A stretch of DNA of 64,000 nt from an uncultured Rikenella sp. Its GTDB lineage: Bacteria > Bacteroidota > Bacteroidia > Bacteroidales > VadinHA17. Where the stretch lies: assembly GCA_964621005.1 (NCBI GenBank), contig CAZUIF010000014.1, positions 12,457 through 76,456 of the forward strand, read 5' to 3'. This document shows, piece by piece, positions 12,021-29,492 of this stretch. Below the pieces are notes generated by a model. The model was not told where the DNA came from. It worked only from the letters and a program-made list of their open reading frames with translations, and made no database searches. The first letter of the stretch is position 1, and each line of letters begins with the position of its first letter. The translations under genes were made by a program, and so were the position numbers.

Positions 12021-13235
12021 TCAAATATAATCGATGGATACCTGCTTCATCCACTTGTCCTCCAGTATCCGGGCTATCCGCTTGACAACGGTACGCCGGA
12101 TCTCCAGGTCTACCGGAAGGGTCGGATCCTGGTGAGCCACATTGATGCGGGTACCTACCAGGAAGTTGATCTCGTCACTCTCCATTATCATTCTGACGAT
12201 CTTGTCTGCAGGTCCCTTGCCCAGCTTGACGCTGTTCCTGTATCCCTTGACCAGCTCATTTACCTTCTGCAGCGTCAGTATACCCTCGGTCACCAGGTCA
12301 ACACCCTCCATGAAGCTCTCGGGCGGAAGGTCAGGGTCCTCGAATATCAGCTCGTCAACTATCTTTCGGTTCAGCTCACGGGCCACGATATCAGCCGTTG
12401 TGCCGCCGCAAAGTATCACCTTTCCATTGTATCCGGTCACGCTTTCAGCGAGTTTCTTGTCCTTCTCCTCCTCGTAGGGAGGGCCTGTACATATGAGCAG
12501 CTTCCGCGGCTCCCTGAAATAGAGTATGGCACATGAGATATCGTCCTTTGCCTCGTAGTTGTCATGCTTATAGGCCATGTTCACTATCTTGGCGGCAAGG
12601 GTTGAAGCCGATATGGAGGGTTCGTTGGCAACCAGCGAGACAGCATATTGCTGAACGTTGTCGCGTTCCCATCCCAGTGGCCAGGCCGGTGATCCCATAC
12701 CGCTCTGGGCAACGCCGTCCGAAAGAAGTATTATCCTGTCTTCCTTGGCAGGGTAGAATGTGCACTTGTGCAGCCGCTTGCCGGCATTCCTCCCCTTGTC
12801 AAGAACCACATCCCTCCAGTCGGGTTCAAAGGGCTGGTTCCCTCTCAGGATGATGCAGCGAGGGTTGTCATACTCAAGTATGTTTGCCCTGCCGTCATTC
12901 TCAATGTCAACTATCGAAAAGGTGGCATAGCTGATCTTCCTCTCGGAACAGATTGGGAGTGTATTCATTATGATCTCCGCAATCCGGTCCGGCTCCTTGT
13001 GTTCACGGGTGAAGTTGAGAGCCATCGTAGAGGTGAGGGTGGCAAGTATATTGGCCTTGACCCCGTGTCCCATGCCGTCAGACAGAACGGTTATGATGCG
13101 GTTCTCCTCGCGTACGTTCTCTGACAGCAAGACATCACCGCAGATACGCTCATCGTGATGGTTGCGCTGCTGGCTGTTGACTTCGATGAAGAACTGCCTT
13201 TCCGTTATCGGGTTCGTGCTACTTTCCGGCTGCAT
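12021..13235 (-). CDS. PP2C/SpoIIE-family serine phosphatase with an uncharacterised C-terminal domain
   Basis: CGDVLL...ITVLSDGMGHGVKANILATL and ILLSDGV motifs. The ATG at 13235 (MQPESST) is preferred over the TTG at 13262. It overlaps the upstream sensory hydrogenase gene by 17 nt. Confidence 0.8.
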   Translation of the reverse strand: MQPESSTNPITERQFFIEVNSQQRNHHDERICGDVLLSENVREENRIITVLSDGMGHGVKANILATLTSTMALNFTREHKEPDRIAEIIMNTLPICSERKISYATFSIVDIENDGRANILEYDNPRCIILRGNQPFEPDWRDVVLDKGRNAGKRLHKCTFYPAKEDRIILLSDGVAQSGMGSPAWPLGWERDNVQQYAVSLVANEPSISASTLAAKIVNMAYKHDNYEAKDDISCAILYFREPRKLLICTGPPYEEEKDKKLAESVTGYNGKVILCGGTTADIVARELNRKIVDELIFEDPDLPPESFMEGVDLVTEGILTLQKVNELVKGYRNSVKLGKGPADKIVRMIMESDEINFLVGTRINVAHQDPTLPVDLEIRRTVVKRIARILEDKWMKQVSIDYI

Positions 13236-15096
13236 TCTTCTTCTGACGGAAAGATTCGACAATGGAATTGAGCATCTTCTCGGTCTCTGAGGCTCCCTCC
13301 CCGAGGAGGAAACCTATCTTCTGAACCATCTCAAGGTTCTTGTCAATGACGTCTGAGACCCTGGTTATCACCTCCTCACGCTGCACTTCCGGCGAAAACA
13401 GGTCGCGTATCACCGCCCCGGCAATCCTGTTCTGCCTTATAGGGAAGATCGAAATGTTGAACATCCGGTCTTCCAGTTGTACATCACGGCTGATAACCGA
13501 TTCGTTTTCGCGCAGAACGAAGGAGAAAATATTGTAGACGTTGAAAGGCAGCAGTGTCTTCAGGTCAGCCCCGCGCAGTCCCGGGATAATCTCGGCAATA
13601 GCCTTTGCATCTTCACCTATTATTTCAAGGAAACGGGCATTCGACTGGAGTATTTTCAGTTCGTTGTCAACTATCACCACCCCGTTGGGCAGCTTGTTGA
13701 GCATGCTGTTCATGGTTTCGGAGGCATCCTGGGCTGCATCCTTCTCGCGCATGGCCTGTTCCTCTGACTCCTTCAGCGCCTTCTTGGTCTCTGAGAGCTT
13801 TTTGTTCGTCTGCCTGAGAGTCTCAATGTATTCCTGCTTGTTTCGCAGGTTATATGTATGGCACATCTCCGGCACGGCCAGACCCTTCGCCACGGTGGCG
13901 GCAAACTCGCGGCACGACCCGTAACCGCAGGCATTGCAGTTGAGCTCTTCGGCCCGGTTATCCTTGCCGATGATTTTCAGCACCTCAACGATAGCCTCCG
14001 GAGAGGGCTCCGGGATACGCTGGTCATTGACGGTGAAACGGCGCGTGAGGTCAAGCTTCGACCACCGTTCCATATCCTTCTTCCACTGTTCCTTGTCAAG
14101 TGACTCAACCCGTTTTTCAGCGTACTGTTTAACAAGGGAGCGGCGCCTGAACCGCTCGTCATGCCGGATCATGCCAGGCCCGAGCATGCAGCCCGGACAG
14201 AAGAAGAGGTTGAAATGGTGCCTGATCGTGTCAATATGATCGTCGAAGTCGCTGATGGCCTCCTTCACATCCTCAGACCCTGAGGCAGTGATAACATGGC
14301 TTGATACAATGTCGCGCTTGATCCCTGCCGCCTGCAGGATGCCGGCAGGGTAGGGGTATAAGGCACCCCAGTTGCCGAAGGGAGGATCAAACTCGGCCAT
14401 CTTGACAGTCTTTTCCTGTATTTCGTTTTCTTCGAAGAGCTGCCTGATCTCAATAAAGGTCAAGACAGCCTCAACAAGGTTTTTCTCACTGTATAGGGCT
14501 GCTTCAGCCTTGATGTCTATGCACGGCCCGATAAAGACGTTGGCCACATCCCCGCCGTACAGATCACGCGTCACCATTGCCGTGGCAACCATAGGGGAGG
14601 CCAGCGGCGCAAGGTTGGGAACCAGGTGCGGGTGGTACTTTTCTATCATCTCAACTATTGAGGGGCAGTTCGATGTGATATAATACTTGCCGCTCGACTC
14701 CTCGAAGAGCTTCCGGTACTCATAGGCCACAAGGTCAACACCAAAGGAGACCTCATGGACATACGTGAATCCCAGGCTTCGGATCATTCCGACGAATTTG
14801 CGGTAGTCGGTAATGTCATCAAATTCCGAAGCAATGCTGGGCGCAATAAGGGCTGCTGTAGGGCGGCCCGACTGCAGTAACTGCCTTACCCGGGAACGGG
14901 AATCACTGAACTCGATCGCTCTTGGGGAACATGCCAGGAAACAGAGCCCGCAACCTATGCACCTGTCAGCAATGATTACCGGGTGAGCCCTCTCGGGCCT
15001 GACCTCAATTGCATTTACAGGACATACCCTTACACAGGAATAAGAGTTGCGGCACTTTTCCTCATTTATATAAATTACCTGGTCAGGTATATTCAT
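13219..15096 (-). CDS. hydS: Sensory-type [FeFe]-hydrogenase-like protein with C-terminal PAS domain (HydS / HfsB-like, phosphatase-linked)
   Basis: N-terminal ferredoxin-like Cys motifs. H-domain motifs TSNCPS (L1), GPCIDIKAE (L2), FFCPGCMLGPG (L3). Extra CNACGYGSC-x16-C (Cx2Cx4Cx16C). Coiled coil, then PAS (LPNGVVIVDNELKILQSNARFLEIIG). Confidence 0.8.
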   Translation of the reverse strand: MNIPDQVIYINEEKCRNSYSCVRVCPVNAIEVRPERAHPVIIADRCIGCGLCFLACSPRAIEFSDSRSRVRQLLQSGRPTAALIAPSIASEFDDITDYRKFVGMIRSLGFTYVHEVSFGVDLVAYEYRKLFEESSGKYYITSNCPSIVEMIEKYHPHLVPNLAPLASPMVATAMVTRDLYGGDVANVFIGPCIDIKAEAALYSEKNLVEAVLTFIEIRQLFEENEIQEKTVKMAEFDPPFGNWGALYPYPAGILQAAGIKRDIVSSHVITASGSEDVKEAISDFDDHIDTIRHHFNLFFCPGCMLGPGMIRHDERFRRRSLVKQYAEKRVESLDKEQWKKDMERWSKLDLTRRFTVNDQRIPEPSPEAIVEVLKIIGKDNRAEELNCNACGYGSCREFAATVAKGLAVPEMCHTYNLRNKQEYIETLRQTNKKLSETKKALKESEEQAMREKDAAQDASETMNSMLNKLPNGVVIVDNELKILQSNARFLEIIGEDAKAIAEIIPGLRGADLKTLLPFNVYNIFSFVLRENESVISRDVQLEDRMFNISIFPIRQNRIAGAVIRDLFSPEVQREEVITRVSDVIDKNLEMVQKIGFLLGEGASETEKMLNSIVESFRQKKNAAGK

Positions 15097-15124
15097 AATC
15101 AGTTAATTAATTTGTTGTTCCGGG

Positions 15125-15382
15125 CTAAACAAGCTCTTTTTCCAGGATCTTCTCTATATCCTGTACGCCGATACCTGTAAATGTCTTCCCGTTGATAATT
15201 ATAAATGGACCCTCGCTGCACCGGTTCATGCAGCGTGCACCCCTGAGAACCACTTTGTCATCAAGGTGATTTTTTCTCAGAAAATCCCTGATGACCTGTA
15301 CTACCTCCCTGTTACCTCTTGAAAAACAAGAGCTTCCAAGGCAAATTTCAATGTTGTACGATTGTCCCAACACCCTTTGCAT
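15125..15382 (-). CDS. Thioredoxin-like [2Fe-2S] ferredoxin (HfsA-like)
   Basis: ICLGSSCFSRGN ... ARCMNRCSEGPFII (Cx4C...Cx3C). The ATG at 15382 is preferred; the ORF track start at 15400 is a TTG. Confidence 0.7.
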   Translation of the reverse strand: MQRVLGQSYNIEICLGSSCFSRGNREVVQVIRDFLRKNHLDDKVVLRGARCMNRCSEGPFIIINGKTFTGIGVQDIEKILEKELV

Positions 15383-15454
15383 TAGTTCATACTCACTCAA
15401 AAGTACAACAATTTACAACGCACTCACCTCCAAAAAGCTAATTTGAAATGTTAT

Positions 15455-15472
15455 TTGTTAATAAAATAACAA
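15455..15472. promoter_or_regulatory. Candidate Rex operator in the divergent hydrogenase promoter region
   Basis: TTGTTAATAAAATAACAA has palindromic half-sites TTGTTA/TAACAA and is close to the reported Rex consensus TTGTKAAnnnnTTMACAA. It is nested in the larger inverted repeat TGTTATTT(15449-15456)/AAATAACA(15464-15471), with a further AAATAACAAT copy at 15481-15490. Confidence 0.5.
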
Positions 15473-15499
15473 TGTTTTTGAAATAACAATAAAAATCTA

Positions 15500-15507
15500 T
15501 AGCTTTG
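15500..15507 (+). promoter_or_regulatory. Candidate -7 promoter box (TAnnTTTG) for the hydCBA operon
   Basis: TAGCTTTG lies 32 nt upstream of the ATG at 15539. The Rex-like box lies where a -33 element would be. Confidence 0.4.
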
Positions 15508-15538
15508 TATTTCTCTGAAAAGTCAGATCATTTTTAAA

Positions 15539-16006
15539 ATGAGTAAGATAGATGATATTCTGAGCCGTTACAGGGAGGGCAGTCATGAGAACCTGATACC
15601 CATCCTCCAGGATGTCCAGGAGGCGGAGGGATATCTCTCTGAGAGTGCCATAGTGCAGATTGGCAGTTTCCTCAGGATGTCAACCACAAAGATTTACGGC
15701 CTGGCCACCTTTTATGACCGTTTCAGGTTTATTCCGGCAGGAAGGGTGCACATGCGGATCTGTAACGGTACCACCTGTTTCATTAACGGTTCTGCGGCGG
15801 TGGTTGCAGCGGTCAGGGATACACTTGGCATTGACCCGGGGCAGACAACCCGTGACGGCAGGTTCAGCTATGAACTGACTGCCTGCCAGGGTGGATGCAA
15901 CGACAGCCCCGTTGTATGCGTTGGCGGGAACTATTTTACACGCCTGCGTCCTGAGGATGTCCCTGAACTCATTACCAAACTTAAAGCACTGGCGGACCTT
16001 AAATGA
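15539..16006 (+). CDS. hydC: NuoE-like [2Fe-2S] subunit of an NAD(P)H-linked hydrogenase (HydC/HndA-like)
   Basis: 155 aa. LIPILQDVQ, CNGTTCFINGS and CQGGCNDSPVV motifs. 4-nt overlap with the next gene. Confidence 0.85.
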   Translation: MSKIDDILSRYREGSHENLIPILQDVQEAEGYLSESAIVQIGSFLRMSTTKIYGLATFYDRFRFIPAGRVHMRICNGTTCFINGSAAVVAAVRDTLGIDPGQTTRDGRFSYELTACQGGCNDSPVVCVGGNYFTRLRPEDVPELITKLKALADLK

Positions 16007-17952
16007 AACAGATCGCAGATTACGGCACGAAGGAATTCCTTATCAGGGAGGTGTTGCTTCACGGCTCTGACAGCCTGCCTGCCGGGACAGTGGGGAGGCT
16101 TGCTGAAATACGCCGCGACAAACCTTCAGCGCCGGTTATTTATGTTGCTTCAGGCTCGGCTGCAATCATTGCCGGAGCCAATGCTACTGCCATGGCTGCC
16201 GTTCAGTGGCTTGAGGAAATGGGAATAAACGGAGAGGTGGTACGAACAGGCTGCCAGGGACCTGCCGCCTTCGAGCCCCTTGTCTGTGTCCACATTCCGG
16301 GTAAGAATAAGCTGATATTCAGGAATATATCCGAGGATAAGGTGGAGCCGCTGCTCAACGGCGTCTTCCATAAGGACATGCCGGCGGAGGATCTCGTGGC
16401 CCAGTCGGGAAACACCGGATTCGAGGCATGGCATGATATTCCCTTCCTTGAGGAGGTGCCATTCTTCAGGATGCAGAAGAGGGTGGTACTGGGCAATTGC
16501 GGCTGGTATGATCCTGAGAGCATTGAGGAATACATAGCCCGCGGAGGTTACCGTACCTTTCTCAAGACCATACGCAATTACACCCATGAGGAGGTTTGTG
16601 ACATCATTGAGCGCAGCGGTCTGAGGGGACGCAGCGGCGGCGGCTTCAATACCGGACTGAAATGGAAATATGCACTTAACTCGGCCTCGGACAACAGGTT
16701 TCTTATCTGCAACGCCAAGGAGAGTGACCCCGGATCATACGCTGACAGGTCGGTGATGGAGGGCGATCCGCACCGTCTGATAGAAGGGATATGCATTGCC
16801 TCCTACGCCATAGGTGCTTCCAGCGCCGTCATCTACCTCAAGACCGGATCGCCCCACCCGCTGGCACGTCTGCGAAAGGCCCTCGCCGCCGCCGCCGACT
16901 ACGGCATTACCGGACATAATATCCTTTCCAGTGGCTTTAACCTCGAGATAATGATCAGGGAAGAGGCAGGAGCCTTCGTATGCGGTGAGGAAACCGCACT
17001 GATAGCTTCCCTCGAAGGCAAGCGGGGCATGCCTGAACTTAAACCCCCGTATCCCACAACAAGCGGCCTCTTCGGCAAACCGACCGTCATCAACAACGTG
17101 GAGACGCTGATGAATGTTCCGCTTATCATGTCACATGGCCCGGAATGGTTCCGCGCCATGGGGACAGAAGGAAGCAAGGGAACCAAACTGTTCTCCCTCG
17201 GCGGAAGAGGCCGTTATACGGGCCTGATAGAAGTGGAGATGGGTACCACCTTCCGGACTATCTCCGAAGGAATAGCCGATGGCATTAGGGATGGAAAGGC
17301 GTTCAAGACCATGCAGATAGGAGGTCCGTCGGGTACCTTCATCACAGAAAATAACCTTGACCTGCCAGTCGATTTCGATGTACTCCGGGACAACGGAATA
17401 GCCATGGGTTCCGGCGGGCTTATTATAATTGACGAAACCACCTGCCTGGTCGATTTCGTACGGTATTACATGGAGTTCATCCACAAGGAGAGCTGCGGCA
17501 AATGCATCCCATGCCGTGAAGGTACGGGCCGTATGCTCGAGATCCTTGAGAATGTGGTTCGGAAGCCTCACAATGAGGACTCAAATGCCACCCTCGAGAG
17601 GTTCAAGGGTGTGATGCAGCTTGAGACAATTGCCTCGGTGATGAAGGACACTTCGCTCTGCGGGCTTGGCCAGACGGCTCCCAACCCTTTCATCAGCGCA
17701 CTTGCCAACTACCGTGAGGAGTTTGAGGAGCATATCTTTGACCGCCGTTGCCGTGCCAATGTTTGCCGGGGACTCAGGACCTTCAGCATCGATGTCGAGA
17801 AGTGCACCGGTTGTACTGTATGTGCCGCCAAATGCCCGGTAAACGCCATCTACGGCACCCGGCTCCAGCCTTTCTTCATCGTGGAGGACAAATGCATCGG
17901 GTGCGGGGTCTGCCATGATGTATGCAAGTTCAGTGCCGTTACAGTAAAATAA
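16003..17952 (+). CDS. hydB: NuoF-like flavoprotein subunit (HydB/HndC-like) with N-terminal thioredoxin-like domain and C-terminal 2x[4Fe-4S]
   Basis: GRSGGGFNTGLKWKY (FMN site), CNAKESDPGSYADRS (NADH site), ESCGKCIPCREGT (N3 cluster), CTGCTVCAAKCP and CIGCGVCHDVC. The N-terminal domain keeps only 1-2 of the expected cluster Cys. Confidence 0.85.
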   Translation: MKQIADYGTKEFLIREVLLHGSDSLPAGTVGRLAEIRRDKPSAPVIYVASGSAAIIAGANATAMAAVQWLEEMGINGEVVRTGCQGPAAFEPLVCVHIPGKNKLIFRNISEDKVEPLLNGVFHKDMPAEDLVAQSGNTGFEAWHDIPFLEEVPFFRMQKRVVLGNCGWYDPESIEEYIARGGYRTFLKTIRNYTHEEVCDIIERSGLRGRSGGGFNTGLKWKYALNSASDNRFLICNAKESDPGSYADRSVMEGDPHRLIEGICIASYAIGASSAVIYLKTGSPHPLARLRKALAAAADYGITGHNILSSGFNLEIMIREEAGAFVCGEETALIASLEGKRGMPELKPPYPTTSGLFGKPTVINNVETLMNVPLIMSHGPEWFRAMGTEGSKGTKLFSLGGRGRYTGLIEVEMGTTFRTISEGIADGIRDGKAFKTMQIGGPSGTFITENNLDLPVDFDVLRDNGIAMGSGGLIIIDETTCLVDFVRYYMEFIHKESCGKCIPCREGTGRMLEILENVVRKPHNEDSNATLERFKGVMQLETIASVMKDTSLCGLGQTAPNPFISALANYREEFEEHIFDRRCRANVCRGLRTFSIDVEKCTGCTVCAAKCPVNAIYGTRLQPFFIVEDKCIGCGVCHDVCKFSAVTVK

Positions 17953-17955
17953 GCC

Positions 17956-19671
17956 ATGCAGTTCACCATAGAAGTAAATAACAAGAGCATCAGGGCGGAG
18001 AAGGGTGAAACCATCCTTTCAGCGCTGAACCGCAACGGCATTATCATACCCACCCTGTGCCGCATGGCAGAGTTCACCCCTACAGGCGCCTGCCGCATGT
18101 GCGTGGTGGAGGTCGAGGGTCGCGACAGGCTGGTTACTGCCTGTTCCGCACCCGTTGAGGAGTGGATGAAGATAAAGACCCATTCTCCCCGCGTCATCAG
18201 GGCCCGCAAGACAATCGTCGAGCTTCTCCTCTCAAACCATCCCGATGACTGTCTGTACTGTGACCGCAATCTCGACTGTGAGCTTCAGCGCCTTTCAGAT
18301 GAGATGCAGGTCAGGGAGCGGCGCATTCGCGGAAGCAAGATCAAGCCCCGCCGCGACCAGTCGAGCCCTGCAATTGTCCGTGAGCTCTCGAAGTGCATCC
18401 TTTGCGGCCGTTGCCTCAGGGTTTGTGAGGAAGTTGTCACAGCAACATCAATTGACTTTATAGGCCGGGGCCGCTATACCCATGTTGGTCCCGCCATGGA
18501 CCGCGACTTCAACTTCTCGAGCTGCATTCACTGCGGTCAGTGCGTGCTTGTCTGCCCTACCGGAGCCCTTCATGAAAAGCATTACCTCACAGAGGTACAG
18601 GAACAGCTCAGTAACAGTGATGTGACCCGCGTCATCCAGTATTCGCCCCTGGTGCCATATGCTCTTGCCGAAGAGCTGGGGATAAAATACAACCGCGACT
18701 TCGACAGGCTGCTCAACGCTGCACTGAGGAAAACAGGCTTCGACAGGATCTTTCTTTCAGGGACCGGAACAGATATCCTGATAACCGAACTTACTGATGC
18801 GATTATCAACGGCAAAAACAATCCGGAAAGGAAGCCGCTGATAGTTTCGGCATGTCCGGCATGGGTCAAGTACTGTGAGCAGTTCACACCAGAGTTGCTG
18901 CCCATGCTTTCGACCCTGAAGACACCGCAGCAGATATCAGGCGCTATCATAAAGTCCGTGGTCCCGGTCAGTGAAGAGAAGCCGCGGGTTTATACCGTAA
19001 GCGTCACCCCGTGCACTGCCATGAAGTTCGAAGCACGCCGCGACAGCATGACAAGAAAGGGGATCAGCGATATCGATACCGTGCTGACTGTGAGGGAGCT
19101 GGCGAGACTGATCGTCCTCTACGGAATTGATATCACGAACATAGACCCGGAGCCGGCCGATGAACCGATGGCACTGCGCAGTTCAGCATCCTTCCTCGCT
19201 GAGTCGGCAGGCGGTATTACCGAATCAGTTCTGCGGTCACTTGCAGCACGTATGGGAGAGAAGGAGGCTGACAGGCCTGCGGTGAAGAAGCTGCGCAATA
19301 CCGGCACCTTCCGTGAGACAATGGTCACGGCGGGAGGAGAGACATACTCTGTTGCCGTTGTTGACGGGCTGAAAGGCCTTTCAAAGCTCAGGCAGATGAT
19401 TGAGGGAGGAGCGCAGTATGACCTTGTGGAGGTGATGGCATGCCCCGGAGGATGTGTCAACGGAGGGGGAATGCTTCCGGCAGGGTCAAGGGAGGCCGTC
19501 AAGCAGAGAACACGCTTCATATGGCAGACGGATGACCAGGAGGCAGTTCGCGCACCGGAACAGTCGGCCTCGGTGGCTGACCTCTACGGCAGGGTATTTG
19601 AACAGTGTTCCGAGCTTGCTGACAAGAAGCTGTTTAATACTCACTTCAGCAAGCGCGAGGTATTGCTATAA
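17956..19671 (+). CDS. hydA: M3-type [FeFe]-hydrogenase large subunit (NuoG-like N-terminus) with non-canonical H-cluster motifs
   Basis: N-terminal [2Fe-2S] region (CRMAEF..GACRMC..C), HPDDCLYCDRNLDCELQ, CILCGRCLRVC, CIHCGQCVLVCP. H-domain aligns colinearly with CpI: IVSACPAWV (L1), VTPCTAMKFEA (L2), VEVMACPGGCVNGGGMLP (L3). Confidence 0.8.
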   Translation: MQFTIEVNNKSIRAEKGETILSALNRNGIIIPTLCRMAEFTPTGACRMCVVEVEGRDRLVTACSAPVEEWMKIKTHSPRVIRARKTIVELLLSNHPDDCLYCDRNLDCELQRLSDEMQVRERRIRGSKIKPRRDQSSPAIVRELSKCILCGRCLRVCEEVVTATSIDFIGRGRYTHVGPAMDRDFNFSSCIHCGQCVLVCPTGALHEKHYLTEVQEQLSNSDVTRVIQYSPLVPYALAEELGIKYNRDFDRLLNAALRKTGFDRIFLSGTGTDILITELTDAIINGKNNPERKPLIVSACPAWVKYCEQFTPELLPMLSTLKTPQQISGAIIKSVVPVSEEKPRVYTVSVTPCTAMKFEARRDSMTRKGISDIDTVLTVRELARLIVLYGIDITNIDPEPADEPMALRSSASFLAESAGGITESVLRSLAARMGEKEADRPAVKKLRNTGTFRETMVTAGGETYSVAVVDGLKGLSKLRQMIEGGAQYDLVEVMACPGGCVNGGGMLPAGSREAVKQRTRFIWQTDDQEAVRAPEQSASVADLYGRVFEQCSELADKKLFNTHFSKREVLL

Positions 19672-19683
19672 AAGAAGGAACCG

Positions 19684-21654
19684 ATGCTTGTATATACAAT
19701 AAAGGAGCTTTGCCGTACATGCTACACCTGCGTGAGGGAGTGCCCTGCCCGTGCTATCCGTATTGTGGGCGGACAGGCAGAGGTGATAACCGAAAAGTGT
19801 ATTGCATGCGGCAACTGTACAAAGGTGTGCAGCCAGGGAGCCAAGGTGTTTGTAAATACCGTTGACCTGGTGCGCAAGGTACTTGCAAGGCCCGGCAAAA
19901 AGGCAGCATTGGTGGCCCCCAGCTTCCCCGCGGAGTTTTATGACATCGATGACTACCGGAAGATGGTCGGGATGATCCGGGCCCTGGGCTTTGACTACGT
20001 CTCGGAGGTTTCATTCGGGGCTGACCTTGTTGCTCACCGCTACCGCAACCTCATAAGCGAAGCCGGTGCAAAAAACTATATTTCATCTGACTGTCCGGCA
20101 ATAGTATCATTCATAAGGTTCTATCATTCCGATCTTACTCCTGATCTTATCCCCGTCGTTTCACCCATGGTGGCCATGACCAGGGTTATGAGGAAGAAGT
20201 ACGGCGATGACCTGTCAGTGGTATTTATCGGTCCTTGCGTTGCCAAAAAGGCCGAAAACGCCGAAGTGGATGCAGCTATCACATTCATTGAGCTGCGCGA
20301 GATGTTTGAAACATCCGGTATCACCCCTGAAACGGCAGCACTTTCCGGGTTTGATCCGCCGCTTGGCGGAAGGGGGGCAATATTCCCCGTAACAAGAGGG
20401 CTGCTCCAGACTGCCGGTGTAAATGATGACGCTATAACCGGAAATATTATTGCAGCGGAAGGACGGATCGGCTTCCAGGAAGCAATCAAGGAGTTTGAAC
20501 AGGGAATGATAGGCGGTCAGCACCTTGAGCTGCTGTGCTGTGAAGGATGCATAATGGGCCCGGGAATGAGCAAGGGCGGCAAACAGTACAACAGGAGGGC
20601 ACTGGTGAGTTCCTATGCCCAGAATAAGATGGCTGCACTTGACATGGCGGAGTGGCGAAACAACCTTGAGAACTATGACAGGCTTGACCTCTCCGTTCGC
20701 TACCGTCCCGAAGACAAAAGGCAGCTGATTCCTCCCGACGACAATGAAGAAGTGCGGCAGGTCCTGGCTTCGATGGGGAAGGTGACTGACAAGGATCACC
20801 TTAACTGCGGTGCATGCGGATATGATACCTGCTATGATCACGCAGTAGCAATAATAAGGGGACTGGCCGAGGAGGAGATGTGCCTGCCCTATACCATTGA
20901 AAAACTGCATAAATCAGTACAGGACCTGGCACTGTCGAATGCCAAGCTCACTACAATGCAGAACGCCCTCAAGCAGTCGGAGAAGCTGGCGCACATGGGG
21001 CAGCTCTCCGCAGGCATAGCACATGAGCTTAACAACCCGCTCGGTGTGGTCATCATGTACAGTAATATCCTGCTTGATGAGTGCAGGCCGGAGGACCCGG
21101 TGCGGGAAGACCTGCAACTGATTGTTGAGCAGGCCGCGAGATGCAAGAAGATAGTTGCCGGACTTCTCAACTTCGCACGCAAGAACCAGGTCAACCACCA
21201 GTTCATTGACATCAGGAAACTTACAGAGAACAGCGTTGCCGGTGTAGTCTTCCCTGATGACGTGAAGGCTGTCATTGAAGACCGGACAACCAGCCCTGAT
21301 GCATCACTTGACTCAGAGCAGATGACCCAGGTGCTGACAAACCTGTTCAGGAACGCCATCGATGCCATGCCCGGCGGAGGAATACTGAAAATAACCCTTG
21401 AAGATACGCCCGGAGATGTTATATTCATAGTTTCGGATACCGGAAGCGGGATTAAGGACGAAGACAAGCCCAAGATCTTTGAGCCCTTCTTTACAACCAA
21501 GGGGCTTGGCAAGGGCACCGGCCTCGGACTGGCTACCACCTACGGCATTGTTAAAATGCACAAGGGGCAGATAACGGTGGAGACAAACAGCAACCCTGCC
21601 AAGGGACCCACAGGCACCACCTTCAGGATCATCCTTCCAAGGAGACCTGAGTGA
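19684..21654 (+). CDS. Sensory-type [FeFe]-hydrogenase-like domain fused to a histidine kinase (HydS-HK / HfsD-like)
   Basis: CRTCYTCVRECP and CIACGNCTKVC. H-domain motifs SSDCPA, GPCVAKKAE, LLCCEGCIMGPG. CGACGYDTC-x16-C. H-box LSAGIAHELNNPL. HATPase motifs NLFRNAIDAMPGGG, DTGSGI, GTGLGLATTYGIV. Confidence 0.85.
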   Translation: MLVYTIKELCRTCYTCVRECPARAIRIVGGQAEVITEKCIACGNCTKVCSQGAKVFVNTVDLVRKVLARPGKKAALVAPSFPAEFYDIDDYRKMVGMIRALGFDYVSEVSFGADLVAHRYRNLISEAGAKNYISSDCPAIVSFIRFYHSDLTPDLIPVVSPMVAMTRVMRKKYGDDLSVVFIGPCVAKKAENAEVDAAITFIELREMFETSGITPETAALSGFDPPLGGRGAIFPVTRGLLQTAGVNDDAITGNIIAAEGRIGFQEAIKEFEQGMIGGQHLELLCCEGCIMGPGMSKGGKQYNRRALVSSYAQNKMAALDMAEWRNNLENYDRLDLSVRYRPEDKRQLIPPDDNEEVRQVLASMGKVTDKDHLNCGACGYDTCYDHAVAIIRGLAEEEMCLPYTIEKLHKSVQDLALSNAKLTTMQNALKQSEKLAHMGQLSAGIAHELNNPLGVVIMYSNILLDECRPEDPVREDLQLIVEQAARCKKIVAGLLNFARKNQVNHQFIDIRKLTENSVAGVVFPDDVKAVIEDRTTSPDASLDSEQMTQVLTNLFRNAIDAMPGGGILKITLEDTPGDVIFIVSDTGSGIKDEDKPKIFEPFFTTKGLGKGTGLGLATTYGIVKMHKGQITVETNSNPAKGPTGTTFRIILPRRPE

Positions 21655-21696
21655 CTGCCCCGGGAAAAAGAGTGAACAATCAAAACAAACTTAGCA

Positions 21697-22089
21697 ATGA
21701 GTAAAACATATTCAGTCCTGCTTGCCGACGATGACCCTGATTACCTCTTCCAGGTGGCATACTACCTGCGCAAGGCCGGGTTCGGGGTGATGGCTGTGGA
21801 GAGCCAGGCTGAAGCAGAGCAGGTGATGGCAAAGACGAAGCCTGACATCGCAGTGTTTGACCTGATGATGGAGAGTGATGACAGCGGCTTCATACTGTGC
21901 TACAAGCTGAAGAGAAAGTATCCGGAGGTGCCGGTCATCCTGGCAACCGCCGTCTCCCGTGAGACAGGCATCACCTTCGGACTAAGCGGTGGACAGGACC
22001 GCGAGTGGATAAGGGCCGATCTCTACCTTGAAAAGGGTGTCAGGCCTGAACAACTGGAACAGGAGATAAAAAAACTTCTCAAAATCTGA
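21697..22089 (+). CDS. Stand-alone response-regulator receiver protein
   Basis: 130 aa. LLADDDPD, IAVFDLMM (phospho-acceptor Asp), no output domain. Confidence 0.8.
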   Translation: MSKTYSVLLADDDPDYLFQVAYYLRKAGFGVMAVESQAEAEQVMAKTKPDIAVFDLMMESDDSGFILCYKLKRKYPEVPVILATAVSRETGITFGLSGGQDREWIRADLYLEKGVRPEQLEQEIKKLLKI

Positions 22090-22091
22090 CC

Positions 22092-23240
22092 ATGGCACAA
22101 CTGAAGATACTTGTAGTTGATGACGAACCGGGCATAAGATCAGGTGTCACCAGGATCCTGGGCAATTTCCACGTTACTTATCCATTCATGGATGAGGACT
22201 ATAAGTTTAATATCCTGGAGGCTGCCACCGGTGAGGAAGGGATAGAAATTATTGACCGGGAGATGCCTGACATCCTCCTGCTTGACAACAAGCTCCCGGG
22301 AATCCAGGGAGTGGAGGTGCTCGAATATGTAAGGAAAAAGAATTATGACATCGTGGTGGCAATGATAACATCTTACGCCTCCATCGACGTCGCCGTAAGA
22401 GCGCATAATGACGGCGCCATCGACTTCATTCCCAAGCCGTTTACACCGCAGGAACTGAAGGCATCTATTGAGCAGATAACAAAGCAGCAGTATCTCCGGA
22501 GGATAACCCACAAGCTGAAGGTTGAAGGCAGGAAGGTCAGGTTCCAGTTTCTTTCCGTGCTGTCGCACGAACTGAAAGCGCCGCTCAACGCCATCGAAGG
22601 CTACCTCAGGATGATGCAGGGGAGGCAGATGGGCGACTCGCTCGATGAATACGCATCTGCTATTGAAAGATCGCTTCAGCGCATTGAAAGCATGAGGAAC
22701 CTGATAATGGACCTCCTCGATTTCACCAAGGTGAGCTTTGAGAGGCAGATGGAGAAGATGCAGAACGTGAACATGAAGGAGCTTTTATCCATGGCAGTGG
22801 GAACAGTCAGCCCCTACGCCATACACAAGGATATACAGTTTGTAACCGAGGTGAAGGGATGTGAGACAATATGGGCTGACCCCAACGATTTTGAGATAAT
22901 TCTCAACAACCTGGTTTCCAATGCCGTCAAGTACAATAAGCCGGGCGGAACAGTTACTGTTACCGTTGACTGCACTGAGAATGAATTCACCGTTTCGGTG
23001 GCTGATACCGGGATAGGGATGAACGGTGATGAGCGTGACATGCTCTTTGAGGAGTTCTCAAGAATCCGTAATGACAAGACCCGAAATATAAGCGGGAGCG
23101 GTCTGGGACTATCAATAGTGAAAAAAGTTGTTGATCTTTACCACGGCGTGATCAATGTGGAGAGTTCCCCTGACAGGGGATCGGTCTTCACGGTGATCAT
23201 TCCCAGGTCACAGGTATCCAATATTAAAACAGGAATATGA
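22092..23240 (+). CDS. Hybrid receiver + histidine kinase
   Basis: ILVVDDEPGIRSG...ILLLDNKLPG receiver, then FLSVLSHELKAPLNAI (HisKA) and NLVSNAVKYNKPGG, DTGIGM, GSGLGLSIVK (HATPase). Confidence 0.85.
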   Translation: MAQLKILVVDDEPGIRSGVTRILGNFHVTYPFMDEDYKFNILEAATGEEGIEIIDREMPDILLLDNKLPGIQGVEVLEYVRKKNYDIVVAMITSYASIDVAVRAHNDGAIDFIPKPFTPQELKASIEQITKQQYLRRITHKLKVEGRKVRFQFLSVLSHELKAPLNAIEGYLRMMQGRQMGDSLDEYASAIERSLQRIESMRNLIMDLLDFTKVSFERQMEKMQNVNMKELLSMAVGTVSPYAIHKDIQFVTEVKGCETIWADPNDFEIILNNLVSNAVKYNKPGGTVTVTVDCTENEFTVSVADTGIGMNGDERDMLFEEFSRIRNDKTRNISGSGLGLSIVKKVVDLYHGVINVESSPDRGSVFTVIIPRSQVSNIKTGI

Positions 23241-23875
23241 AAACACTCCCCGGAAAGACAGTTGAACGACTCAGCCAGTACCGCAGAGCGCTGACAGCCA
23301 CCCTTGCTTCAAACAGAAATTATGTTTTTTCACATGAGCTTGCCGCCATGCTGCACATCACTGCTGTGCAGGTAAGACGTGATCTCATGCTGATCGGTTA
23401 CGGCAGCGTGATGAGAAAAGGCTATGACGTGAGAGAACTGATCAATACAATAGGGTCAATTATTGATGGACCGACCAGCCTCAATGTGGCCATCATCGGG
23501 ATGGGCAACCTCGGCAGGGCCATCACCGGTTACTTCAAGGGCAAGCGTACCAACATGAATGTTGTGGCAGCTTTTGATGTCGATCCCCAGAAGGTTGACA
23601 AGGTGGTTGCCGGAGTCAGGTGCTACAATATCAGCCAGTTGAGGAAGTTCAGAGAGGAGCTCGATATCTCGGTAGCTGTCCTTGCCATTCCCGCCGACCA
23701 GGCGGTCACAATGGCTTCCATGCTTGTCAGCAACGGGATAAAGGGTATCATGAACTTTACAACCGTTCCCCTCAACATGCCCGACACAGTTTACCTGGAA
23801 GAGTTTGACATGATCACATCTATAGAGAAGGTGGCCTATTTTGTAAAGGAGAACCAGCAGCCGGCGGGACAATGA
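23237..23875 (+). CDS. rex: Redox-sensing transcriptional repressor Rex
   Basis: TVERLSQYRR...SHELAAMLHITAVQVRRDL (wHTH) and IIGMGNLGRAI (Rossmann NADH site). 212 aa. ATGA overlaps on both sides. Confidence 0.9.
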   Translation: MKTLPGKTVERLSQYRRALTATLASNRNYVFSHELAAMLHITAVQVRRDLMLIGYGSVMRKGYDVRELINTIGSIIDGPTSLNVAIIGMGNLGRAITGYFKGKRTNMNVVAAFDVDPQKVDKVVAGVRCYNISQLRKFREELDISVAVLAIPADQAVTMASMLVSNGIKGIMNFTTVPLNMPDTVYLEEFDMITSIEKVAYFVKENQQPAGQ

Positions 23876-24783
23876 GGATATTCAGGAGCTTTGAGGAGGC
23901 GTCGGTCATTAATGCCCCTGTGGTCACAACAGGCACCTTTGACGGCGTACACATCGGGCACCGGACAATCATAAACAGGCTGAAGAAACTTGCGTCGGAG
24001 CACGGCGGCGAAAGCGTGCTGATCACCTTCCATCCGCATCCGAGGGTGGTACTTTACCCTGAAACCGCAGGCAAGGGGCTGAAGCTGATATGTTCCCAGG
24101 AGGAAAAGACAGAGCTCCTGCGCAAGGCAGGGCTTGACAATGTAATTATTATTGAGTTTACCCGCGAGTTTGCGAAGATCACCAGCGAGGAATTCGTGAG
24201 GGATATCCTATGCGGGGTACTGGGGGCGAAGGTGATAGTCGTCGGCCATAACCACCACTTCGGGTTCAACCAGGAGGGTGACTACCGCAGGCTGTGGGAG
24301 TGGAGGGAGCAGTATGGCTTTGAGGCCGAAGAGATACCGATGCAGGAGGTGCAGAACGAGACCGTCAGTTCCACCCGCATACGGCAGGCTCTTACAGAAG
24401 GATACATCCAGCGTGCCAACGCATACCTGGATCATTTCTACCTTGTTATAGGCACCGCAGTAAAGGATGATCCCGGACTGTCACCGCTTGTGCCGATGAT
24501 ACGGATACCGGTGACAGACGTCACGAAGCTCGTCCCGGCACCGGGACTTTATGCTGTGTCCTGTGCCGCCGAGACTTACTTTTCAAGGGGGATGGTTTTC
24601 ATCCCGGACAACGGGACGCTTTTGCCGGATATATTCCTCCATCTTGAAAAATATGAGAGTGATATTCCGGGCAAGCGGATGACACTTTTCTTTCACAAGC
24701 GGCTCCAGGCGTCACGCTTCGGCATGGGTACAGAAAAGGCTCTTATTGAGGGTGTTAGGGAGATAGGTGAACTTATATTCTGA
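23872..24783 (+). CDS. ribF: RibF-like FMN adenylyltransferase/riboflavin kinase with a degenerate kinase motif
   Basis: N-terminal VVTTGTFDGVHIGHRTII and VSSTRIRQAL (FMNAT module). The C-terminal RFK-like module has GLYAV, but PMIR sits where the PTAN motif is expected. Confidence 0.75.
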   Translation: MRIFRSFEEASVINAPVVTTGTFDGVHIGHRTIINRLKKLASEHGGESVLITFHPHPRVVLYPETAGKGLKLICSQEEKTELLRKAGLDNVIIIEFTREFAKITSEEFVRDILCGVLGAKVIVVGHNHHFGFNQEGDYRRLWEWREQYGFEAEEIPMQEVQNETVSSTRIRQALTEGYIQRANAYLDHFYLVIGTAVKDDPGLSPLVPMIRIPVTDVTKLVPAPGLYAVSCAAETYFSRGMVFIPDNGTLLPDIFLHLEKYESDIPGKRMTLFFHKRLQASRFGMGTEKALIEGVREIGELIF

Positions 24784-24813
24784 TTCCCCGGAACACCGGG
24801 AAACTTTAATCCG

Positions 24814-24821
24814 TATCTTTG
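24814..24821 (+). promoter_or_regulatory. Candidate -7 promoter box (TAnnTTTG) upstream of hydG
   Basis: TATCTTTG lies 45 nt upstream of the ATG at 24866. A weak hairpin CCCGG-AACA-CCGGG (24787-24800) follows ribF. Confidence 0.35.
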
Positions 24822-24865
24822 TATGATATATCTCTGCGAGGGGGACAGAGCAAAAAAGTAAAGAG

Positions 24866-26287
24866 ATGAAATTCAATCCTGAAAAATGCAGTATTCCTGA
24901 CCGCAGGATGGAGCCGTTCATTGATCCGGCTGAACTGTGGAATCATATAAATAATAACAAGGCTGACGCCGTAAGGGTGAGGGAGCTGATAGCCAAATCG
25001 CTTTCCAAGGAGCGCCTTACACTGGCTGAGACAGCTGTGCTCATCAATGCCGGAGGCAGCCTGGTTGAGGAGATCAAGGCCGGCGCACGCGAGCTGAAGA
25101 AAAAGGTCTACGGAAACAGGATAGTACTGTTTGCCCCTTTGTACATAGGGAACAAATGCACAAACAACTGCCAGTACTGCGGATTCAGGGTCACAAACAA
25201 GGAAGCAAGGCGCAAGACACTTTCCGATGAAGAGATTACGGCCGAGGTTGAGGCGCTTGAGGACAACGGCCAGAAGAGACTTATCCTGGTTTACGGTGAG
25301 CATCCGGAATACGGTCCTGATTATATAGCCCATACCGTAAACCTGGTCTATGGCATCAAGAAGGACCGGGGTGAGATCCGAAGAGTAAACATCAATGCTG
25401 CACCTCTTGATGTGGACGGATTCCGCACTGTTGGCAGATCAGGTATTGGCACCTACCAGATATTCCAGGAGACCTATGACCCGGAAGCATACAAATGGTA
25501 CCACCTCGGCGGGAAGAAAAAGGACTATGAGTGGCGCCTTACCGCCCTTGACAGGGCGCAGGAAGCCGGAATTGACGATGTGGGCATCGGAGCCCTGTTC
25601 GGCCTGTACGACTGGCGTTTCGAGGTGATGGGCCTGGTGAGGCATGCAAACCACCTGGAGGCCTGCTATAATGTGGGCCCTCATACAATCTCCTTCCCCA
25701 GGATCAAGGATGCCTCGGCGCTGAACCTCAACGGACAGTACTATGTCAGCGATGAGAACTTCAAGAAGCTGATAGCAATTTTGCGCCTGGCTGTTCCGTA
25801 TACCGGGCTTATTCTCACTGCCCGCGAGGCACCTGACGTCAGGTCCGAGGCTATGGCCTTCGGAGTGTCGCAGATAGACGGCGGAACAAAGCTTGAGCTG
25901 GGAGGGTACTCGGCCTCGAAAAATGCGGAGCAGAATCTCAACCGCGAGCAGTTCAAGATCAATGATGAACGGTCACTTGCTGACGTTATCGATGAGCTGA
26001 TAGACAATGACTACATACCGTCGTTCTGCACGGCATGCTACCGCCTTGGCCGTACCGGCGAGCACTTCATGGAGTTCTCAGTGCCCGGGTTTATAAAGCG
26101 GTACTGCACTCCCAACGCCATTCTTACACTGTCTGAGTATATTGTTGACTATGCATCGCCGGAACTGGCTGAAAAGGGATGGAAGGCAATCGAAAAGAAC
26201 ATGGCTGACCTCGACGAGGGGATGAAGCAGAGCATACTTAAGAAGATAGACAGGATAAAGAAAGGGGAGAGGGACCTTTACTACTAA
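24866..26287 (+). CDS. hydG: [FeFe]-hydrogenase H-cluster radical-SAM maturase HydG
   Basis: 473 aa, ThiH-like. CTNNCQYCGF radical-SAM motif and C-terminal CTACYRLGRTGEHFME...C cluster motif. Confidence 0.9.
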   Translation: MKFNPEKCSIPDRRMEPFIDPAELWNHINNNKADAVRVRELIAKSLSKERLTLAETAVLINAGGSLVEEIKAGARELKKKVYGNRIVLFAPLYIGNKCTNNCQYCGFRVTNKEARRKTLSDEEITAEVEALEDNGQKRLILVYGEHPEYGPDYIAHTVNLVYGIKKDRGEIRRVNINAAPLDVDGFRTVGRSGIGTYQIFQETYDPEAYKWYHLGGKKKDYEWRLTALDRAQEAGIDDVGIGALFGLYDWRFEVMGLVRHANHLEACYNVGPHTISFPRIKDASALNLNGQYYVSDENFKKLIAILRLAVPYTGLILTAREAPDVRSEAMAFGVSQIDGGTKLELGGYSASKNAEQNLNREQFKINDERSLADVIDELIDNDYIPSFCTACYRLGRTGEHFMEFSVPGFIKRYCTPNAILTLSEYIVDYASPELAEKGWKAIEKNMADLDEGMKQSILKKIDRIKKGERDLYY

Positions 26288-26298
26288 AATCAAAAATC

Positions 26299-26823
26299 AT
26301 GGTCAGAGTATTGGGTATTAAGATCACTGACAGGATCAAGGAGGCAGGCCTGGTTCAGAAGGCACTCTCGGAGTACGGCTCTGTTGTCAGCACCAGGCTT
26401 GGTTTTCATGAGCTGAATGATGAGCTGTGCAGCCGCGAAGGATTCATGGTCATCCACCTTGCCGGCCATGTCGACGACTGTGAGGAACTGGTGGCCAGGC
26501 TTAAGGGCATTGAGGGGCTTTTTGTGAAGGAGATGGCTTTTTCACATGGTCTCTCGGATGCTTCAACAGATTGCGACGGCACCACCGTTTTAGGTATCAT
26601 GGTCCCAAGGCGTGAAGAGCTGGGACCTGCGGTGCAGGCGCTGCTTACCACTTACGGATGCGTCATCCGCACAAGGCTTGGGGTCAATGAGGTTTATTTC
26701 GGCGAGCCGGCCGGGCTGATCATCCTTGAACTTGCAGGCGACAGGAGCCAGTATGCTTCACTGGAACGTTCGCTGCGCGAGATAGATGAGATAGCAATTG
26801 GCCGTATCTGCTTTCCTGCCTGA
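26299..26823 (+). CDS. TM1266-type putative iron-only hydrogenase system regulator, tandem duplicated
   Basis: Two homologous ~80-aa halves: VLGIKITDRIKEAGLVQKALSEYGSVVSTRLGFHE...IHLAG and VLGIMVPRREELGPAVQALLTTYGCVIRTRLGVNE...LELAG. Confidence 0.7.
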   Translation: MVRVLGIKITDRIKEAGLVQKALSEYGSVVSTRLGFHELNDELCSREGFMVIHLAGHVDDCEELVARLKGIEGLFVKEMAFSHGLSDASTDCDGTTVLGIMVPRREELGPAVQALLTTYGCVIRTRLGVNEVYFGEPAGLIILELAGDRSQYASLERSLREIDEIAIGRICFPA

Positions 26824-29415: not shown

Positions 29416-29492
29416 GTCAGGTTTGAGTAGTGCGGGCAATTTCGGAAAAAAGAGGATTGGTTGTTACTGCAGGAGCTTGTTATGCAGCATAA

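Follow-up and report, generated by a model that had tools for sequence, protein, structure and literature searches.

Putative H2 sensors of the [FeFe] hydrogenase family are divided in HydDB into group C1, linked to histidine kinases, and group C3, linked to phosphatases, with their roles left undetermined there (PMC5037454). The T. maritima protein HydS (TmHydS), the biochemical reference for such sensors, is non-prototypical in that the residues equivalent to CpI Cys299, Met353 and Met497 are replaced, and its turnover persists without the relay Cys (PMC10055695). Histidine-kinase-type and PAS-type sensors beside group A3 hydrogenases have already been described (PMC11406978, PMC7768429, PMC5037454); specifically, a C1 gene lies near the hnd genes of Petrimonas mucosa, a cultured member of the Bacteroidales (PMC7768429), and Hydrogenedentota BfuABC sub-types IV and V carry bfuT, which encodes a PAS- or histidine-kinase-type group C3 protein (PMC11406978). 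Deletion of hfsB rewires fermentation, and the genetics points to a regulatory role (PMC5707799), while HfsD is a catalytic ferredoxin-linked hydrogenase and HfsA is described as unlike any known protein (PMC11837493). Furthermore, hydrogenase genes, hydG and the genes of TM1266-type regulators are under Rex repression in C. thermocellum and Caldicellulosiruptor bescii (PMC8457756); the consensus operator of Rex is quoted as TTGTTAANNNNTTAACAA (PMC5367854, PMC12044746). Here we describe a 13-gene locus at positions 12021-26823 of a 64,000-nucleotide (nt) stretch from an uncultured Rikenella sp. (contig CAZUIF010000014.1); the whole stretch that was analysed is called the window below. We read the locus as the form taken in the Bacteroidales by a widespread, Rex-controlled [FeFe]-hydrogenase regulon with three transcription units, at a probability of about 0.6.

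The following genes were identified in the locus by open reading frame (ORF) listing and by Pfam and NCBIfam profile searches.

12021-13235, minus strand: PP2C/SpoIIE-type Ser/Thr phosphatase, 404 amino acids (aa) (Pfam SpoIIE, E = 2.4e-13)
13219-15096, minus strand: PAS-type HydS (HydS/HfsB-like), with 2x[4Fe-4S], an H-domain, a Cx2Cx4Cx16C motif and a PAS-like C-terminus
15125-15382, minus strand: thioredoxin-like [2Fe-2S] ferredoxin, 85 aa (Pfam 2Fe-2S_thioredx, PF01257, 6.6e-11)
15539-16006, plus strand: HydC, NuoE-like [2Fe-2S] subunit (Pfam 1.8e-43; NCBIfam NuoE-family models at or just below cutoff)
16003-17952, plus strand: HydB, NuoF-like subunit for flavin mononucleotide (FMN) and NADH (Pfam Complex1_51K, NADH_4Fe-4S and Fer4)
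17956-19671, plus strand: HydA, M3-type group-A [FeFe] hydrogenase subunit (Fe_hyd_lg_C, E = 3.7e-63; NCBIfam)
19684-21654, plus strand: HydS-HK, an H-domain fused to a HisKA/HATPase histidine kinase (Fe_hyd_lg_C, E = 1.1e-40)
21697-22089, plus strand: single-domain receiver (Pfam Response_reg, 2.7e-15)
22092-23240, plus strand: receiver-histidine kinase hybrid with the LvrB-like architecture receiver (REC)-HisKA-HATPase (Pfam)
23237-23875, plus strand: Rex, NADH/NAD+-sensing repressor (NCBIfam NF003995, 190.9 bits against a cutoff of 126)
23872-24783, plus strand: RibF-like protein with an intact FMN adenylyltransferase module (Pfam FAD_syn, 9.4e-45)
24866-26287 (alternative start 24908), plus strand: HydG radical S-adenosylmethionine maturase (NCBIfam TIGR03955, 481 bits against a cutoff of 312)
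26299-26823, plus strand: tandem TM1266/CPF_0552-type putative hydrogenase-system regulator (NF052672, 136 bits against a cutoff of 85, two stretches; Pfam TM1266-like)

All 13 ORFs were found at the coordinates and on the strands given by the first-pass annotation of this DNA, and the domains and spacing that it had claimed were confirmed as well. Its placement of the locus in a Bacteroidota background also held, as the nearest relatives are all Bacteroidales metagenome-assembled genomes. The H-cluster domain Fe_hyd_lg_C (PF02906) is present in three of the proteins, encoded at 13219-15096 (minus), 17956-19671 (plus) and 19684-21654 (plus). The plus-strand genes run hydC-hydB-hydA-hydS(HK)-REC-REC/HK-rex-ribF-like, followed by hydG and the tandem TM1266-type gene, and the minus-strand genes run ferredoxin, PAS-HydS and PP2C. 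ATGA overlaps occur at 16003, 23237 and 23872, the plus-strand gaps are 3, 12, 42 and 2 nt, and 82 nt lie upstream of hydG. Homologue lengths and public gene calls indicate that the PP2C gene probably starts at ATG 13235 (404 aa) instead of TTG 13262, and the ferredoxin gene at 15382 (85 aa, as called in a public assembly) instead of TTG 15400; for hydG, a public gene call gives a possible start at 24908 (459 aa), with which the gap to the ribF-like gene would be 124 nt. The ratio of nonsynonymous to synonymous substitution rates (dN/dS) was 0.02-0.07 for all locus genes, although these ratios are rough, dS being saturated (>1) in the pairs compared.

The divergent intergenic region between the ferredoxin gene and hydC is 138 nt long. 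Regulatory elements predicted there and at the ribF-like/hydG junction are as follows.

15398-15405, minus strand: -7 box TACTTTTG of the ferredoxin/PAS-HydS/PP2C operon, a TAnnTTTG match 16 nt upstream of ATG 15382
15455-15472, no strand assigned: predicted Rex operator TTGTTAATAAAATAACAA, one mismatch to the clostridial consensus
15473-15490, no strand assigned: conserved block TGTTTTTGAAATAACAAT, comprising a Rex half-site (ATAACAA) and the -33 TTTG (15477-15480) of the hydC promoter
15500-15507, plus strand: -7 box TAGCTTTG of the hydC operon, 19 nt after the -33 TTTG and 32 nt upstream of hydC
24787-24800, plus strand: GC hairpin CCCGG-AACA-CCGGG right after the ribF-like stop codon, read from the sequence, a possible operon end
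24814-24821, plus strand: -7 promoter box TATCTTTG upstream of hydG, from the TAnnTTTG scan

The predicted operator is the sole Rex-box match in the 64 kb at two or fewer mismatches, with a chance expectation of 0.13, and one orthologue (L003) carries a perfect Rex box. Across 41 aligned orthologous intergenic regions, the Rex box and the adjoining TGTTTTTGAAATAACAAT were the only long conserved block; the latter showed at least 90% column identity, and its flanks were variable. Because TAGCTTTG has a TTTG 19 nt upstream, the operator block abuts and partly overlaps the -33 element of hydC. A Rex box with at most two mismatches to TTGTNAANNNNTTNACAA was also present within 200 nt upstream of the first cassette gene in 30 of 48 loci from other phyla, against a background rate of 11 in 4089 windows. 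Upstream of hydG, no Rex box was seen. Judged by its sequence, the 23237-23875 product is a bona fide member of the Rex family, having a winged-helix N-terminus (Put_DNA-bind_N), a CoA_binding domain, a Rossmann GMGNLG motif and FDVD.

Scans for sigma-70 promoters and intrinsic terminators gave no signal over the shuffled expectation. Since these scans are unsuited to Bacteroidota promoters, the TAnnTTTG scan was chosen. It gave nine boxes in 20 kb, three of which stand directly upstream of hydC, the ferredoxin gene and hydG; the TAnnTTTG and TTTG boxes here match the Bacteroides -7 and -33 promoter consensus. The hairpin at 24787-24800 lacks a T-run and falls below the criteria of the terminator scan. 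Given the boxes in front of these three genes and the hairpin after the ribF-like stop codon, we propose three transcription units. In five related loci (L011, L014, L019, L039 and L078), the hydC 5' leader, from the promoter to the start of the gene, carries an insertion of two to five tandem copies of a hairpin-containing element of ~50 nt (...CTACAATACTTTAACCGCTACGCGGTATGAA...); the window has no copy of it.

The arrangement was then compared across genomes. A close-relative scan with HydS-HK gave 110 confirmed relatives in species-representative genomes, and the best 80 of the 110 were examined. These 80 were nearly all labelled Bacteroidales, Rikenellaceae or Bacteroidota (exceptions, L071 and L074-L076), all came from metagenome-assembled genomes, and their identity reached 93-95%; the exact protein sequence is also present in public metagenome assemblies. 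The whole block is kept in order and orientation in ~45 Bacteroidales species-representative genomes, with HydS-HK identity down to ~67%, indicating that the gene arrangement is not due to chance. In these genomes the conserved block also takes in hydE and, at its flanks, Nudix and metallophosphoesterase genes. In more distant Bacteroidales, hydCBA-hydS(HK)-REC-REC/HK-rex-ribF-like is retained, in some of them together with the PAS-HydS/PP2C arm.

A distant HydS-kinase profile search of species-representative genomes gave at least 589 relatives, in Planctomycetota, Myxococcota, Acidobacteriota, Hydrogenedentota, Latescibacterota, Marinimicrobia, Nitrospirota, Caldisericota, Fibrobacterota and others, and 79 loci from other phyla were fetched for gene order. 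The dominant order among them was rex-hydC-hydB-hydA-hydS(HK)-REC-REC/HK, often followed by hydE and hydG, and the core from rex to REC/HK was found in most of the 79. As this core order recurs in many phyla, the union of hydrogenase, kinase sensor, phosphorelay and Rex is widespread. The ribF-like gene was found in none of the 79 loci, and the PAS-HydS/PP2C arm in one (L108). Three features are specific to the Bacteroidales: rex has moved to the 3' end, a ribF-like gene is present, and a ferredoxin/PAS-HydS/PP2C operon runs divergently. The locus is a widespread Rex-controlled hydrogenase/sensor cassette that has been rearranged and elaborated in this lineage. Outside the Bacteroidota, only L108, from Lentisphaerae, was seen to have PP2C, PAS-HydS, ferredoxin and rex on a single strand, and that strand is divergent from HydS-HK with no hydCBA in between.

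The two sensor-like proteins share one plan, namely an N-terminal 2x[4Fe-4S] region and then an H-domain with the four cluster-ligating Cys (L1 CP, L2 PC and L3 CxxC). Over 413 aa, the two sensor modules share 43% identity, against 23% with HydA over 132 aa. Behind the H-domain, the four-Cys FeS motif PF04060 (Cx2Cx4Cx16C) was found in both (E = 5.5e-08 and 3.4e-09), and the HisKA and HATPase matches were strong. PAS-HydS matched Fe_hyd_lg_C (E = 5.6e-40), two Fer4 domains and PF04060 in Pfam, and PAS-kinase models of NCBIfam at ~1e-6; its motifs are TSNCP, GPCIDIK and LFFCPGC. HydS-HK has SSDCP, GPCVAKK and ELLCCEGC, the FeS motif and the H-box IAHELNNP. At the marker sites of TmHydS, Cys299 is replaced by Asn in PAS-HydS and by Asp in HydS-HK, and Met353 by Gly in both; Met497 is tentatively replaced by Phe and Leu, respectively, the L3 register of the sensors having been read by eye and not by structural alignment. 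Across 158 kinase-type sequences, GPC[IV]AKK, the FeS motif and the H-box are conserved, and the relay position holds Asp in the Bacteroidales sequences and Thr or Ser in the others.

By sequence inspection, the two kinases, the two receivers and the PP2C all retain their catalytic or phospho-acceptor residues. The lone receiver has the acidic pair DD, the phospho-acceptor D54, T84 and K113, all of which are conserved, and the hybrid has D65, H159 and the N and G boxes. The PP2C homologues are 394-404 aa long with invariant metal-binding Asp motifs. An AlphaFold2 model of the PP2C had a mean confidence (pLDDT) of 74.6, and Foldseek returned PP2C matches only (SpoIIE, RsbU and Rv1364c, E~1e-12). 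Its C-terminal ~160 aa (12021-12536) form a highly conserved Rossmann/flavodoxin-like domain with a CGGTTAD loop, for which neither Pfam nor NCBIfam gave a match; modelled alone, this domain had a pLDDT of 77 and only weak fold matches (MGS, UbiX and SDR, with template-modelling scores, TM, of at most 0.45). It may bind a ligand. The ferredoxin has four Cys arranged as Cx4C...Cx3C.

We propose the following circuit. At low NADH/NAD+, Rex would repress the hydC operon, including rex itself, and rising NADH would release it. The plus-strand operon would then provide a HydABC-type hydrogenase linked to NADH and probably to ferredoxin, together with a cytoplasmic histidine kinase having an H-cluster input domain. 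H2 would set the redox state of the H-cluster in HydS-HK and change its autophosphorylation, and the phosphate would be passed to the lone receiver and/or the hybrid receiver and on to an output regulator encoded outside the locus. The divergent operon would add a second H2 sensor of the hfsB/hfsC kind, whose output would be protein dephosphorylation. HydG, the tandem TM1266-type protein and the nearby HydE would supply the H-cluster to all three H-domain proteins.

The most unexpected feature of the locus is its remodelled HydA and HydB. An M3-architecture HydA adjoins a NuoF-like HydB and a NuoE-like HydC, as in group A3/Bfu-type HydABC, the best structural relative of HydA is the T. kivui bifurcating HydA1 (E = 9.5e-121), and the best solved-structure matches of HydB are BfuB/HydB subunits (E up to 3.6e-177). 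We aligned HydA to the bifurcating HydA of T. kivui, A. woodii and T. maritima and to the cassette HydAs of other phyla. The canonical motifs are TSCCPxW for L1 and MPCxxKxxE for L2 (PMC6085437), and HydA departs from both. Its L1 is VSACPAW (residues ~297-303), with Ala at CpI Cys299, and its L2 is TPCTAMKFE (residues ~351-361), with Thr at Met353 and Met at Lys358. Lys358 binds cyanide and is important for holding the diiron site. In the proton pathway, Glu279 is replaced by Leu, Glu282 by Ala and Arg286 by Gly; Ser319, Met497 and all cluster ligands are kept, and L3 (EVMACPGGC) is canonical. The altered motifs occur in all orthologues at 64% identity or more and in nearly all of the 120 nearest cluster representatives, apart from a few rows with a single-residue variant or no match, and dN/dS of HydA is 0.02-0.03 (again rough, with saturated dS), a sign of purifying selection.

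HydB is altered in the same clade. Its N-terminal thioredoxin-like domain (16003-16560) reads GSAA...TGCQGPA against the reference GTGC...TGCHGMC, so that two to three of the four [2Fe-2S] ligand Cys are lost clade-wide, whereas distant relatives keep them. The FMN core is kept, and the C-terminal 2x[4Fe-4S] region is present (Fer4 at 595-642, CTGCTVCAAKCP and CIGCGVCHDVC); the corresponding clusters B3 and B4 are held necessary for bifurcation (PMC11406978). On the other hand, Bacteroidales with the same operon but a ~50% identical HydA have SSCCPAW and MPCIAKKFE, and the cassette HydAs of other phyla have TSCSPGW and MPCTAKKFE with the Glu residues intact, as in A. woodii HydA1; the TSCSP variant was reported earlier (PMC3787301, PMC11406978). 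The relay position varies naturally within this operon family, as Asp (SSDCPAW) was seen in Bacteroidota loci L063 and L064 and Ser (TSSCPAW) in L067 and L069. Because HydA has lost the canonical proton pathway and Lys358, and HydB its N-terminal cluster, this HydABC probably has altered kinetics or an alternative proton route. As a tentative suggestion, the HydABC of the clade could be either a natural [FeFe] hydrogenase in which both the proton route and the way the cofactor is held are new, or a slow, NADH-referenced H2 comparator.

The RibF-like protein also departs from its family. Its FMN adenylyltransferase module aligns to residues 17-196 of CaFADS, and the solved-structure matches cover mainly residues 16-199. 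Its riboflavin-kinase half is degenerate: Flavokinase scored 16.3 bits against a cutoff of 19.6, all NCBIfam RibF models were below cutoff, and neither the G-x-PTAN motif nor the catalytic Glu was found in the alignment. More distant orthologues keep more of the riboflavin-kinase features. Rfam and tRNA scans of the window gave no match, hence no FMN riboswitch. A link between this protein and the FMN of HydB is conjecture on our part.

These results modify what the first-pass annotation had proposed, an integrated H2, NADH and ferredoxin sensing circuit in which phosphatase-linked and kinase-linked sensors flank one NuoEF-coupled hydrogenase. The shared sensor architecture and the substitutions at the TmHydS markers agree with the flanking sensors, but the active site of the hydrogenase between them is non-canonical. 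An NADH sensor is supported by a Rex above cutoff and by the conserved Rex box in the divergent promoter, although the union of Rex, kinase and HydABC turned out to be common to many phyla instead of peculiar to this locus. An H2/NADH circuit is plausible for Rex and the sensors, but the locus encodes no output regulator for it, and nothing in the analysis shows ferredoxin sensing. As for the flavin enzyme, the adenylyltransferase module stands and the kinase half does not; its translational coupling, with that of rex, to the kinases is suggested by the 4-nt overlaps and by these only.

Several observations weigh against the regulon that we propose. Domain searches and neighbourhoods gave no response regulator with a DNA-binding output domain in the locus or in related loci, and no substrate of the PP2C, such as a STAS-type protein or a partner kinase, is encoded nearby. 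The second "Rex site", in the TGTTTTTGAAATAACAAT block, has four mismatches, and its conservation may stem from the -33 element and not from Rex binding. Control of the divergent operon by Rex is uncertain, since the Rex box lies ~50 nt from the minus-strand -7 box. The PAS call is weak (PAS_8, E = 0.002, 18.4 bits against a cutoff of 21.8). Hydrogenase activity of HydA cannot be assumed, as Cys299, Glu279, Glu282, Arg286 and Lys358 are all missing. In addition, every relative in this clade is uncultured.

Three other explanations of the locus were weighed against these data. The HydABC of the clade might be a low-turnover or strongly biased H-cluster protein, possibly an NADH-coupled redox/H2 comparator, with bulk H2 passing through another hydrogenase elsewhere in the genome. 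The residues Ala299, Leu279, Ala282, Gly286, Thr353 and Met358 of HydA speak for this, as do their clade-wide motifs (every orthologue at 64% identity or more, almost all of the 120 nearest representatives), the loss of the N-terminal [2Fe-2S] ligands of HydB in the same clade, and the canonical motifs retained by same-operon relatives in other Bacteroidales and other phyla; moreover, loss of Cys299 and Met353 marks the sensory TmHydS (PMC10055695). However, HydA keeps the four cluster Cys, Met497, Ser319, the M3 electron-transfer domains and NuoEF-type partners including the C-terminal 2x[4Fe-4S], and it has no signalling domain. TmHydS turns over despite its missing relay Cys (PMC10055695), and natural Ser and Asp variants exist at the relay position in related loci. 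We consider a low-turnover HydABC unlikely, but if the comparator reading is true, the locus would be a signalling device with three H-clusters, whose phosphorelay and phosphatase outputs act outside the locus.

It is likewise doubtful that Rex, as a global redox regulator, and the RibF-like protein, as the FAD (flavin adenine dinucleotide) synthetase of the cell, merely sit at the end of the operon. Firmicutes Rex regulons do cover glycolysis and fermentation besides hydrogenases (PMC8457756), and in other phyla the cassette begins with rex and lacks a ribF-like gene, so that the exact position of rex and its link to ribF are lineage-specific. Nevertheless, most loci, from many phyla, have rex linked with the cassette, the Rex operator stands in the cassette's own promoter here and elsewhere, and the ribF-like gene follows rex in all Bacteroidales loci, down to ~45% identity; the degenerate kinase half of its product suggests a specialised RibF paralogue and not the sole RibF. 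Finally, the two "sensors" could be catalytic hydrogenases, with C-terminal domains that regulate the activity or are coupled to it. The H-cluster ligands and the accessory clusters are present in both, and HydS-HK has Asp at the relay position. Asp is known to support proton transfer in the engineered variants C298D and C169D. Activity of TmHydS is also measurable (PMC10055695). Against this, Met353 is replaced by Gly, the L3 motif is altered, and residues of the Glu279/Glu282 type were not identified in these proteins. The kinase-type H-domain is fused to a complete, conserved kinase with the H-box intact in at least 150 loci and receivers encoded next to it, which is a signature of signalling, and the PAS type has a phosphatase as its partner, like hfsB with hfsC, for which the genetics points to regulation (PMC5707799). 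Catalytic function of the two proteins thus seems very improbable, and we retain the Rex-controlled hydrogenase/sensor regulon as the preferred reading.

In the flanks, outside 12021-26823, a HydE maturase is encoded.

29493-30665, minus strand: HydE (TIGR03956, 319.9 bits against 254.6), in a position kept in related loci

An M14 carboxypeptidase gene (26833-29439) separates hydE from the TM1266-type gene; most related loci have it too, but L032-L037 and L077 do not. Family searches of the flanks, from which several flank ORFs were left out, found neither hydF nor a further hydrogenase in the window. The flanks also encode an ADP-forming acyl-CoA synthetase-like protein, an aminotransferase, a 2-oxoacid:ferredoxin oxidoreductase and three peptidases (M28, M14 and C69). 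By their predicted products, the flank genes (regions 32550-34679, 36981-38327, 38614-40463, 8520-10160, 26833-29439 and 30649-32271) fit an amino-acid/peptide fermenter that would make reduced ferredoxin needing disposal.

For asking what sensory [FeFe] hydrogenases control, and for explaining the hfs genetics, this locus and its relatives in many phyla offer a compact and testable system, in which an H-cluster is fused to a histidine kinase and two candidate phospho-acceptors are encoded adjacent to it. With its Rex operator in the promoter, the locus predicts how signals from NADH and H2 would converge on one hydrogenase, and the HydA remodelled throughout the clade is relevant to the question of which residues are truly needed in an [FeFe] hydrogenase. 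Relatives occur in digesters, wetlands and groundwater, where H2 partial pressure governs syntrophy and methane formation. We found no publication on the receiver/receiver-kinase pair, on Rex operators in this cassette or on a SACP/TPCxAMK HydA, nor one dissecting a HydS-kinase phosphorelay or Rex control of Bacteroidota hydrogenases, subscription journals being outside the search.

Compared with HydDB groups C1 and C3 (PMC5037454) and TmHydS (PMC10055695), the sensors here have the same combination of 2x[4Fe-4S], H-domain, extra four-Cys motif and signalling domain, the same replacement of the relay Cys and Met353, and A3-type hydABC genes adjacent; this likeness is drawn from domains and residues. 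Unlike in those systems, both sensor types flank one hydABC and the kinase is fused in the same polypeptide, and the relay position is Asn (PAS type) or Asp (kinase type) and not Ala as in TmHydS. Hydrogenedentota BfuABC is similar in its bfuC/B/A core with an adjacent sensory H-domain protein and in a varying P1 motif (PMC11406978), and Hydrogenedentota loci (L118, L123 and L155) were recovered in our distant HydS-HK scan. The two sensor types belong to different sub-types there and occur together here, BfuA has TSC[C/S]P there where HydA has SACP and TPCxAMK, and a receiver/receiver-kinase pair is not described, response regulators not having been searched for there. Rex is never mentioned in that study.

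The first-pass annotation had also pointed to a likeness with the hfsABCD genes of Thermoanaerobacterium. PAS-HydS and the PP2C are counterparts of hfsB and hfsC at the domain level, and the trio of small Fe-S protein, PAS-HydS and Ser/Thr phosphatase parallels the hfsB-hfsC arrangement, Ruminococcus albus HydS being a further close system; this parallel is drawn from domains and published descriptions (PMC5707799, PMC11837493). The likeness does not extend to hfsD and HfsA. No hfsD counterpart exists here, the minus-strand operon ending with the PP2C gene, and HfsD as a kinase-fused H-domain protein was considered and rejected, as it is described as a catalytic ferredoxin-linked hydrogenase (PMC11837493). 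The thioredoxin-like [2Fe-2S] ferredoxin is not obviously HfsA, because HfsA is described as unlike any known protein (PMC11837493).

The 22092-23240 hybrid shares its REC-HisKA-HATPase architecture and its length (382 aa) with Leptospira LvrB (PDB 8vc9); the function is unrelated, the resemblance is one of architecture and sequence family only, and the LvrB matches (NCBIfam and solved structures) came from HydS-HK as query, not from the hybrid. As in the [NiFe] systems HoxBC-HoxJ-HoxA and HupUV-HupT-HupR (PMC5707799; HydDB group 2b), a hydrogenase-type H2 sensor would control a histidine kinase, although the metal site and the family are unrelated, sensor and kinase are one polypeptide here, and no NtrC-type output regulator is encoded. 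Finally, in contrast to the clostridial Rex regulons, the hydrogenase operon here contains rex, at the 3' end, the genome is one of the Bacteroidota, the promoter is of the Bacteroidetes type, and hydG has no visible Rex box of its own. The locus nevertheless shares with clostridial Rex (PMC5367854, PMC12044746) the same operator sequence TTGTTAANNNNTTAACAA and, by prediction, autoregulation of rex, and with the regulons of C. thermocellum and Caldicellulosiruptor bescii (PMC8457756) the association of Rex with [FeFe]-hydrogenase operons, hydG and a TM1266-type gene, which was shown there.

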